A stretch of DNA of 64,000 bases from Escherichia coli. Lineage in GTDB: Bacteria > Pseudomonadota > Gammaproteobacteria > Enterobacterales > Enterobacteriaceae. The notes below the pieces were generated by a model that saw nothing but the letters and a program-made list of their open reading frames with translations, was not told where the DNA came from and made no database searches. Below, piece by piece: positions 57,566 to 57,813 of this stretch. The translations under genes were made by a program, and so were the position numbers. Each line of letters begins with the position of its first letter. Positions within the stretch are counted from its first letter, which is position 1. Location: the NCBI RefSeq assembly GCF_050920415.1, contig NZ_CP169309.1. One strand, given 5' to 3'.

Positions 57566-57813
57566 AATTTCTCACATGTAATTCTAATCACTCATCATTA
57601 TAGATAATTGAAGAGTGAAATGATTAACCAAGTGAGCGTTTATCGACAACCGCCCGTTTTGAGCGGATGTCGACAGGTAAAACCATTTAAAAAAGCAGCA
57701 TCATATATTTGAAGCGACTTTCAATGGCCATTGCAACACAGTCAGAAATGACAGGAATAGAGAGAGTAAAAAGCAACAACAGACTGAATATAGCGCGCAT
57801 TAAAAGATTCATA

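Follow-up and report, generated by a model that had tools for sequence, protein, structure and literature searches.

YqfG, a conserved small membrane protein encoded directly behind the urate permease gene uacT: a tentative transporter partner in the Enterobacterales

Several small membrane proteins are known to bind or modulate transporters, with AcrZ-AcrB, KdpF-KdpABC, MgtS-MgtA/PitA and CydX-cytochrome bd as examples. AcrZ, KdpF, MgtS and CydX are, like the YqfG protein considered here, single-helix polypeptides of fewer than 50 residues, and some of them are encoded in the operon of their partner. YqfG displays the AcrZ/KdpF type of conserved adjacency to a transporter gene, together with an apparent stop-start coupling to that gene, but it has no sequence similarity to any of the four proteins and is likened to them by gene context alone. 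To our knowledge, no permease of the NCS2/NAT family has a described small-protein partner. A second precedent is provided by yjcH (DUF485), which lies beside actP, and by yhdT (DUF997), which lies beside panF; in both cases the gene of a small membrane protein adjoins that of a secondary transporter and, as with yqfG, a short hydrophobic ORF has been kept in this position across species. The yjcH and yhdT products, however, comprise roughly 80-104 residues with two helices, belong to Pfam families and are encoded upstream of the transporter gene, whereas yqfG lies downstream of it, spans 41 codons and matches no family model. The roles of small membrane proteins have been summarized elsewhere (PMC10470546).

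YqfG can also be compared with the substrates of the site-2 protease (S2P) RseP, such as RseA, FecR, HokB, YkgR, Blr, YshB and remnant signal peptides, with which it shares a type II-like hydrophobic segment, helix-destabilizing residues and a very short periplasmic part. Remnant signal peptides are by-products of secretion, whereas YqfG is the product of a stand-alone gene, and cleavage of RseA (sigmaE) and FecR has a regulatory outcome, whereas none has been described for YqfG. The existence of the protein has presumably been confirmed by chromosomal tagging. In the literature it counts as an E. coli small membrane protein, traced back to Hemm et al. 2008, to which TMHMM assigns an N-in/C-out (i.e. 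type II) topology (PMC4597795); the periplasmic part is put at approximately 12 residues (PMC8144685, PMC4597795). An HA-MBP-YqfG fusion is made smaller by wild-type RseP and not by catalytically dead RseP, and proline substitutions in the N-terminal half of the YqfG transmembrane segment suppress RseP loop mutants in an allele-specific manner (PMC4597795). YqfG has been listed as a class I RseP substrate, cleaved in all four published assay formats, which cover plasmid-borne, chromosomal and purified in vitro RseP and two tags (PMC10470546, Table 1). Membrane integration of tagged YqfG and its intramembrane cleavage by RseP have thus been shown by others (PMC4597795, PMC10470546), with the caveat, voiced in the RseP papers themselves, that tags can alter topology, the published data being those of tagged K-12 protein. 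Finally, a 2023 Ribo-seq study places yqfG among the previously known sORFs and reports no significant change for it under acid stress, with one adjusted P value left blank, possibly owing to low counts (PMC10746267, Table S8).

The locus analyzed here lies in a 64-kb stretch of E. coli DNA, hereafter the window. A first-pass annotation of its letters had pointed to an unannotated minus-strand ORF of 41 codons, opened by an ATG two nucleotides after the uacT stop and preceded by GGAG at suitable spacing inside the uacT 3' end. Both the ORF and the GGAG are present as described (Table 1); a single base (57813) separates the uacT stop from the ATG, which therefore begins at the second nucleotide past the stop. 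The ORF turned out, however, to be annotated already. The window DNA is 100% identical to a RefSeq record that carries, at exactly the same coordinates, the CDS "yqfG: protein YqfG" (WP_001050745.1), and the K-12 MG1655 counterpart is b4684, "uncharacterized protein YqfG" (NC_000913.3:3032817-3032942, YP_002791254.1). The K-12 gene occupies the same position between uacT and idi, on the same strand and with the same length, is co-oriented with uacT and likewise starts one base past its stop; the product encoded in the window, MNLLMRAIFSLLLLFTLSIPVISDCVAMAIESRFKYMMLLF, is identical to that of K-12 at 40 of 41 residues and differs in one conservative substitution (L3 here, F3 in K-12). The label "unannotated" thus reflects nothing other than the size cut-off of the ORF track. 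It is hardly open to doubt that the 41-codon ORF is yqfG and that yqfG is a genuine, already catalogued E. coli gene; having stood in the K-12 annotation for years and served as a model RseP substrate, it is already known and not a discovery. The best overall explanation of the data, to which we assign a probability of about 0.85, is that this real and catalogued gene encodes an inner-membrane protein of 41 residues, probably coupled to uacT; the joint action with UacT discussed below is held with considerably less confidence.

Table 1. Features of the uacT-yqfG region of the window, in window coordinates
Feature	Coordinates	Strand	Basis or remark
yqfG CDS, 41 codons + TAA	57687..57812	-	Sequence, translation, identical RefSeq-annotated DNA; ATG at 57812-57810, TAA at 57689-57687
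Shine-Dalgarno-like GGAG, in final uacT codons	57819..57822	-	6 nt before yqfG ATG
uacT (ygfU), urate/H+ symporter gene, 482 aa	57814..59262	-	TAA stop at 57816-57814
Stem-loop 3' of yqfG	57641..57675	-	RNA fold, comparative
yqfH, small gene antisense to yqfG	57620-57712	+	

The mechanical ORF list gives a 47-aa form of the yqfG frame, starting at an upstream ATG within uacT. This start was rejected, the upstream in-frame ATGs being missing in Citrobacter Res13, Raoultella and Kluyvera; the ATG of the 41-codon form is the only start common to the orthologues.

The first-pass annotation had also considered that the ORF may be spurious, and a chance ORF without a product in the AT-rich DNA behind uacT has some arguments in its favor: its sequence is AT-rich and uses rare codons, and neither Pfam nor NCBIfam provides a model for it. 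In addition, ORFs of this size are common: with 271 ORFs of 41 codons or more opening at an ATG in the six frames of the window, the length of yqfG is unremarkable by itself. What sets it above chance is the conservation of its reading frame. To assess conservation, uacT loci were taken from one genome per species, the region downstream was inspected for a yqfG-like ORF and substitutions were counted by the Nei-Gojobori method. The comparison of the window with E. albertii yields seven synonymous changes and a single non-synonymous one (dN/dS 0.03; binomial P = 1.6e-4 for 7/8 synonymous, with 22% of sites taken as synonymous). Values of 0.12 and 0.31 were obtained against the yqfG genes of Citrobacter MGH106 and R56, respectively, and of 0.09 between Citrobacter R56 and Res13, the range among the more distant orthologues being 0.09-0.33. 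Within the Escherichia group, variable sites are distributed 4/2/12 over codon positions 1/2/3. At the distance of Citrobacter, 11 of 30 changed codons are synonymous in the annotated frame, as against 0-6 in the other five frames, and the excess of synonymous changes at larger distance is seen in the sense frame of yqfG only. The conservation and Ka/Ks test in relatives that had been proposed with the annotation thus shows the frame to be kept and dN/dS to lie well below 1.

Frame, ATG and Shine-Dalgarno sequence are in fact conserved across species in at least eight genera, and the frame is under purifying selection in Escherichia, Citrobacter, Raoultella, Kluyvera, Klebsiella, Pseudocitrobacter, Pantoea and Apirhabdus/Erwinia. 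Together with the status of b4684 as a curated K-12 gene and the experimental work on YqfG as an RseP substrate (PMC4597795, PMC10470546), this leaves practically no room for a chance ORF.

Within E. coli, the gene is close to universal. A megablast search with the region matched 5,393 of 5,426 complete E. coli genomes, in which the features read uacT, yqfG, idi, and a 144-nt query was covered over at least 80% of the region in 5,356 of the 5,426 (~99%). Among 60 records sampled evenly down the match ranking of these genomes, 59 carry a yqfG annotation. Rare in-frame indels give rise to E. coli variants of 37, 38, 43 and 45 aa, and in three further variants (P0046, found in 33 contigs, P0033 and P0029) the first 8-12 residues of YqfG are swapped for others (MNKLESLP..., MNTVLTSRLP...), a pattern suggestive of insertions or rearrangements where uacT meets yqfG in these strains. 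yqfG is thus dispensable at least in those E. coli strains whose copy is truncated or has had its N-terminus replaced. One more match, a "protein YqfG, partial" (P0042) 97% identical to that of E. coli, comes from a 216-nt contig labelled Vibrio parahaemolyticus and is most likely due to E. coli contamination of that assembly.

Beyond E. coli, a single-sequence homology search returned matches in Escherichia and Shigella only. This search under-reported the family because of its word index, and inspection of uacT loci and profile searches reached further. E. albertii and Citrobacter sp. MGH106, R56 and Res13 have the same 41-codon ORF, its ATG again one base past the uacT stop, and three Raoultella species as well as Kluyvera have a 38-codon version that carries its own Shine-Dalgarno sequence and starts 66-88 nt past uacT. 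A profile built from 11 orthologues and run against 1.84 billion representative proteins produced 34 hits at E <= 1e-3, including approximately 20 distinct peptides of 38-42 aa, and a second profile search added Pseudocitrobacter corydidari, Klebsiella aerogenes, K. pasteurii and Raoultella terrigena, as well as Pantoea alhagi and Apirhabdus/Erwinia. The relatives outside E. coli named in this second search are all labelled "hypothetical protein". The consensus of the family reads M-x-x-R, some 13 hydrophobic residues and then S/A-I/L-P-A-V-Q/S-x-x-I-x-L-G-I/L-x-S-R-F-x-F/Y-x-L-L-F; P20, R33 and F34 are invariant, whereas R6, L14 and S32 show very little variation.

Database models did not capture this family: Pfam gave no hit for E. 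coli YqfG and none above threshold for 21 family members, NCBIfam returned only a sub-threshold ComGG match (12 bits against a 40-bit cutoff), Rfam offered nothing meaningful at yqfG and no PDB chain matches the family. Nor does the 64-kb window contain a second ORF of the family, beside the other NCS2/nucleobase permease genes or elsewhere. An unnamed YqfG family extending across the Enterobacterales, with an invariable place behind UacT-type permeases, was not found in the literature examined, and we regard it as a modest addition to what is known.

The family has also been lost, or is missing, in several lineages. A Cedecea species retains the permease gene with a decayed 10-codon remnant behind it (MNFLALLQSY and a stop; locus L006, 3607-3640), its ATG still one base past the uacT stop, and this remnant shows a lineage-specific loss of yqfG with the permease retained. 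No yqfG-like ORF was found behind uacT in Serratia oryzae, Buttiauxella, Morganella and Pluralibacter, and none of 66 UacT-like genes from outside the enterobacteria, most of them in Beta- and Alphaproteobacteria, has a family member beside it. Given that some uacT-bearing relatives lack the ORF, the permease does not universally need YqfG.

Where the small ORF exists, on the other hand, its association with the permease is strict. The gene directly upstream of it encodes a UacT-like permease (Xan_ur_permease, PF00860) in all 28 loci examined, that is, the species uacT loci plus the contigs encoding nine diverged family members, and the identity of these permeases falls to approximately 44% over the C-terminal half. 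The distance from the stop of the permease gene to the ATG of the ORF amounts to -1, +1, +2, +3 or +4 nt for most lineages and widens to 66-88 nt in Raoultella and Kluyvera. A purine-rich GGAG, AGGA or GGGAG precedes nearly all orthologues at similar spacing; the Shine-Dalgarno sequence of E. albertii (GGTG) is weak, as are those of the Apirhabdus/Erwinia-type loci. The gene that follows is idi in Escherichia and Citrobacter and an FdhF-like gene in Raoultella, Klebsiella, Pantoea and others; some loci have none, and in Kluyvera a terminator stands right behind the small ORF. The permease is the sole constant neighbor of the small ORF in these 28 loci, and the adjacency persists across lineages.

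In the Raoultella and Kluyvera loci, where the small ORF lacks stop-start coupling to uacT, the spacer between the two genes (3601-3688 in L008 and L009, 3604-3669 in L012) bears a GC-rich hairpin, e.g. GGCGTCAG...CTGACGCC. The small ORF may be expressed or regulated differently in these two genera.

Because the adjacency has held while the permease diverged to this extent and the downstream gene changed, a partnership between YqfG and UacT suggests itself. Taken from conserved gene order alone, such joint action would be a serious possibility, which we nevertheless rate at somewhat less than an even chance. The same neighborhoods bring in a different candidate partner. A gene for an FdhF-like molybdopterin oxidoreductase starts 12-45 nt past the small ORF of Raoultella, Klebsiella, Pantoea and a number of metagenomic lineages, and YqfG might be tied to an anaerobic redox module for urate degradation, made up of the FdhF-like protein and of iron-sulfur flavoproteins of the AegA/YgfT type, and not to the permease; the YqfG of Escherichia would, on this view, be what remains there of an ancestral uacT-yqfG-fdhF-like operon. 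This close spacing is found in most lineages other than Escherichia, a YgfT/AegA-like gene is located upstream of the permease in divergent orientation, and AegA and YgfT, encoded next to UacT, are held responsible in E. coli for the degradation of urate that depends on formate (PMC12507026, which cites Iwadate and Kato 2019). The gene order as such suggests an ancestral uacT-yqfG-fdhF-like operon that may have been tied to that process. The FdhF-like gene is absent, however, from Escherichia, including E. albertii, and from three Citrobacter lineages, and the small ORF is still under selection there (dN/dS 0.03-0.33); in Kluyvera the terminator directly follows the ORF, in Serratia oryzae no small ORF intervenes between uacT and the FdhF-like gene, and it is the permease gene, not the FdhF-like one, that the small ORF adjoins in a tight stop-start junction. 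We therefore regard a tie to the redox module as unlikely, and a functional link of YqfG to UacT as the preferred reading.

Some properties of the FdhF-like genes can be recorded here. Examples are found at 4138-6285 in L084, 4144-6300 in L087, 5238-7385 in L092, 3143-5290 in L098, 3848-5989 in L009 and 3655-5796 in L011, and the Serratia oryzae gene sits directly behind uacT. The gene is often called as two pieces of 139 and 559 aa, which points to an in-frame TGA, and this codon probably encodes selenocysteine.

At the protein level, the suggestion of a signal- or TM-like N-terminus was borne out. The best 19-residue Kyte-Doolittle window of YqfG scores 2.18 (residues 4-22), the GRAVY value is 1.44, and published work takes the protein to cross the membrane once (PMC4597795, PMC8144685); its hydrophobic segment has the length needed for one passage of the bilayer and is accompanied by an N-terminal positive charge (R6), the topology being a predicted one. 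The AlphaFold2 model, computed from a 21-sequence alignment, has a helix at residues 3-17, a break at 18-19 and a second helix at 20-40 (mean pLDDT 86). YqfG would comprise an N-terminal arginine, a hydrophobic helix some 15 residues long, an interruption at P20 and a further helix bearing the S-R-F-x-F/Y...F C-terminus, and its predicted N-in/C-out insertion would leave a periplasmic tail of about 12 residues, with the conserved SRFxF...F at the periplasmic face.

The layout of R6, some 13 hydrophobic residues, a helix-breaking proline and small residues is also that of a signal peptide, and YqfG could conceivably be a secretory precursor, in which residues 1 to ~23-29 form a cleavable Sec signal peptide that releases a 12-18 residue peptide, ending in ...SRFKYMMLLF, to the periplasm, with RseP merely clearing the leftover signal peptide. 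Candidate sites such as VIS|D and AMA|I for the E. coli protein and IQA|A and VQA|G for its R. terrigena and Kluyvera relatives, the location of the most conserved block in the putative mature part and the fact that RseP degrades remnant signal peptides, YqfG having been tested for its resemblance to them (PMC4597795), are in line with such a precursor. Inspection of the family alignment, however, revealed no conserved small residue at -3/-1 for signal peptidase I: acceptable sites occur in E. coli, Citrobacter, R. terrigena and Kluyvera, whereas Q, R, Y or D occupies these positions in approximately half of the family, which lacks a fixed site (AVQQA|I, AVRQA|I, SIQDV, AVQYA). Moreover, HA-MBP-YqfG stays full-length without RseP, its conversion being RseP-dependent (PMC4597795), and the cysteine is not conserved, with G, A, I or V in its place in other family members, and no lipobox is present. 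Secretion as a precursor thus appears improbable, and we retain a membrane-anchored, predicted single-pass protein on which RseP, the site-2 protease, acts within the membrane, as published. A lipoprotein reading was likewise considered and rejected, because YqfG has no L-[AS]-[GA]-C lipobox, the E. coli protein having V-I-S-D-C.

On its 3' side, yqfG is followed at 12 nt from its stop by a stem-loop without a U-run. The 81-nt RNA that contains it (57700-57620) has a folding energy of -25.4 kcal/mol (z = -3.95 relative to shuffled sequences), and the stem is perfect in E. albertii, Citrobacter sp. MGH106 and the E. coli locus L002, with changes on both arms. Citrobacter R56 and Res13 have a hairpin of unrelated sequence at the same position, and Kluyvera a hairpin with a T-run. 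The structure is a probable 3' end or terminator-like structure of a uacT-yqfG transcript. Since it lacks a U-run and was not called by a simple terminator scan (no T-run), it may be a weak terminator or a structure that stabilizes the 3' end. A reading of the hairpin as a REP element was not supported by eye. The promoter of idi, TTGTCG-18-AATCAT, has been placed between yqfG and idi in a list of constitutive promoters (Shimada 2014, PMC3946193), and its -35 hexamer TTGTCG sits in the 3' arm of the stem-loop.

This arrangement raises the question of whether the peptide matters at all. The ORF abuts uacT, the hairpin follows closely on its stop and the proposed idi -35 hexamer is part of the hairpin, and translation of yqfG might in principle act in cis, by protecting the 3' end of the uacT mRNA or by modulating the hairpin or the idi promoter, irrespective of the product. 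The amino acid conservation described above (dN/dS 0.03-0.33) exceeds, however, what a cis-acting spacer needs, P20, R33 and F34 are invariant despite nucleotide saturation at synonymous sites, and the ORF is kept although the genes behind it differ widely, and also where there is no hairpin. A pure cis effect is hence very improbable, and selection on the YqfG protein remains the reading we adopt.

A further gene, yqfH, lies antisense to yqfG. In K-12 it is b4753 and encodes a product of 23 aa, MINQVSVYRQPPVLSGCRQVKTI, reported by VanOrsdel 2018 (PMC6001520). In the window, a 1-nt deletion in a T-run just past the yqfG stop shifts the 3' end of yqfH and leaves yqfG untouched; the resulting product has 30 aa, MINQVSVYRQPPVLSGCRQVKPFKKAASYI, and the gene overlaps the final 26 nt of yqfG. 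Strains with the deletion allele carry the PGAP label "hypothetical protein" instead of YqfH. The variable C-terminus, as read from these alleles, argues against strong constraint on YqfH.

The mechanism that we propose can be outlined as follows. yqfG would be the distal cistron of a uacT-yqfG transcript, as its sequence context indicates, and ribosomes that terminate on uacT would re-initiate at the yqfG ATG by translational coupling through the embedded GGAG, a proposal prompted by the start one base past the uacT stop and by the GGAG in the last uacT codons. The stem-loop would close this unit ahead of the separate idi promoter. YqfG would act in the membrane with UacT, on the stability, assembly or activity of the urate/H+ symporter, and RseP would set its lifetime. 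Co-transcription, coupling, N-in/C-out topology and the functional tie to the urate permease are all elements that we infer. In its most specific form, the proposal is that the YqfG family is a dedicated small partner of UacT, either subunit or regulator, co-translated with it by stop-start coupling and removed by RseP, throughout the Enterobacterales; we advance it tentatively and consider it rather more likely to fail than to hold in full.

The analysis also shows that an ORF below the size threshold, flagged from sequence alone, can be a real gene, and yqfG may serve as a positive control for scans of this kind. The locus is now of interest for the degradation of urate by gut microbes, and the strict adjacency to uacT in the Enterobacterales provides a hypothesis that is cheap to test, namely an effect of YqfG on urate transport. 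If the proposal is correct, YqfG would be the first small protein described as the partner of an NCS2/NAT nucleobase transporter and a previously unnoticed part of the locus for urate uptake and degradation in gut bacteria.
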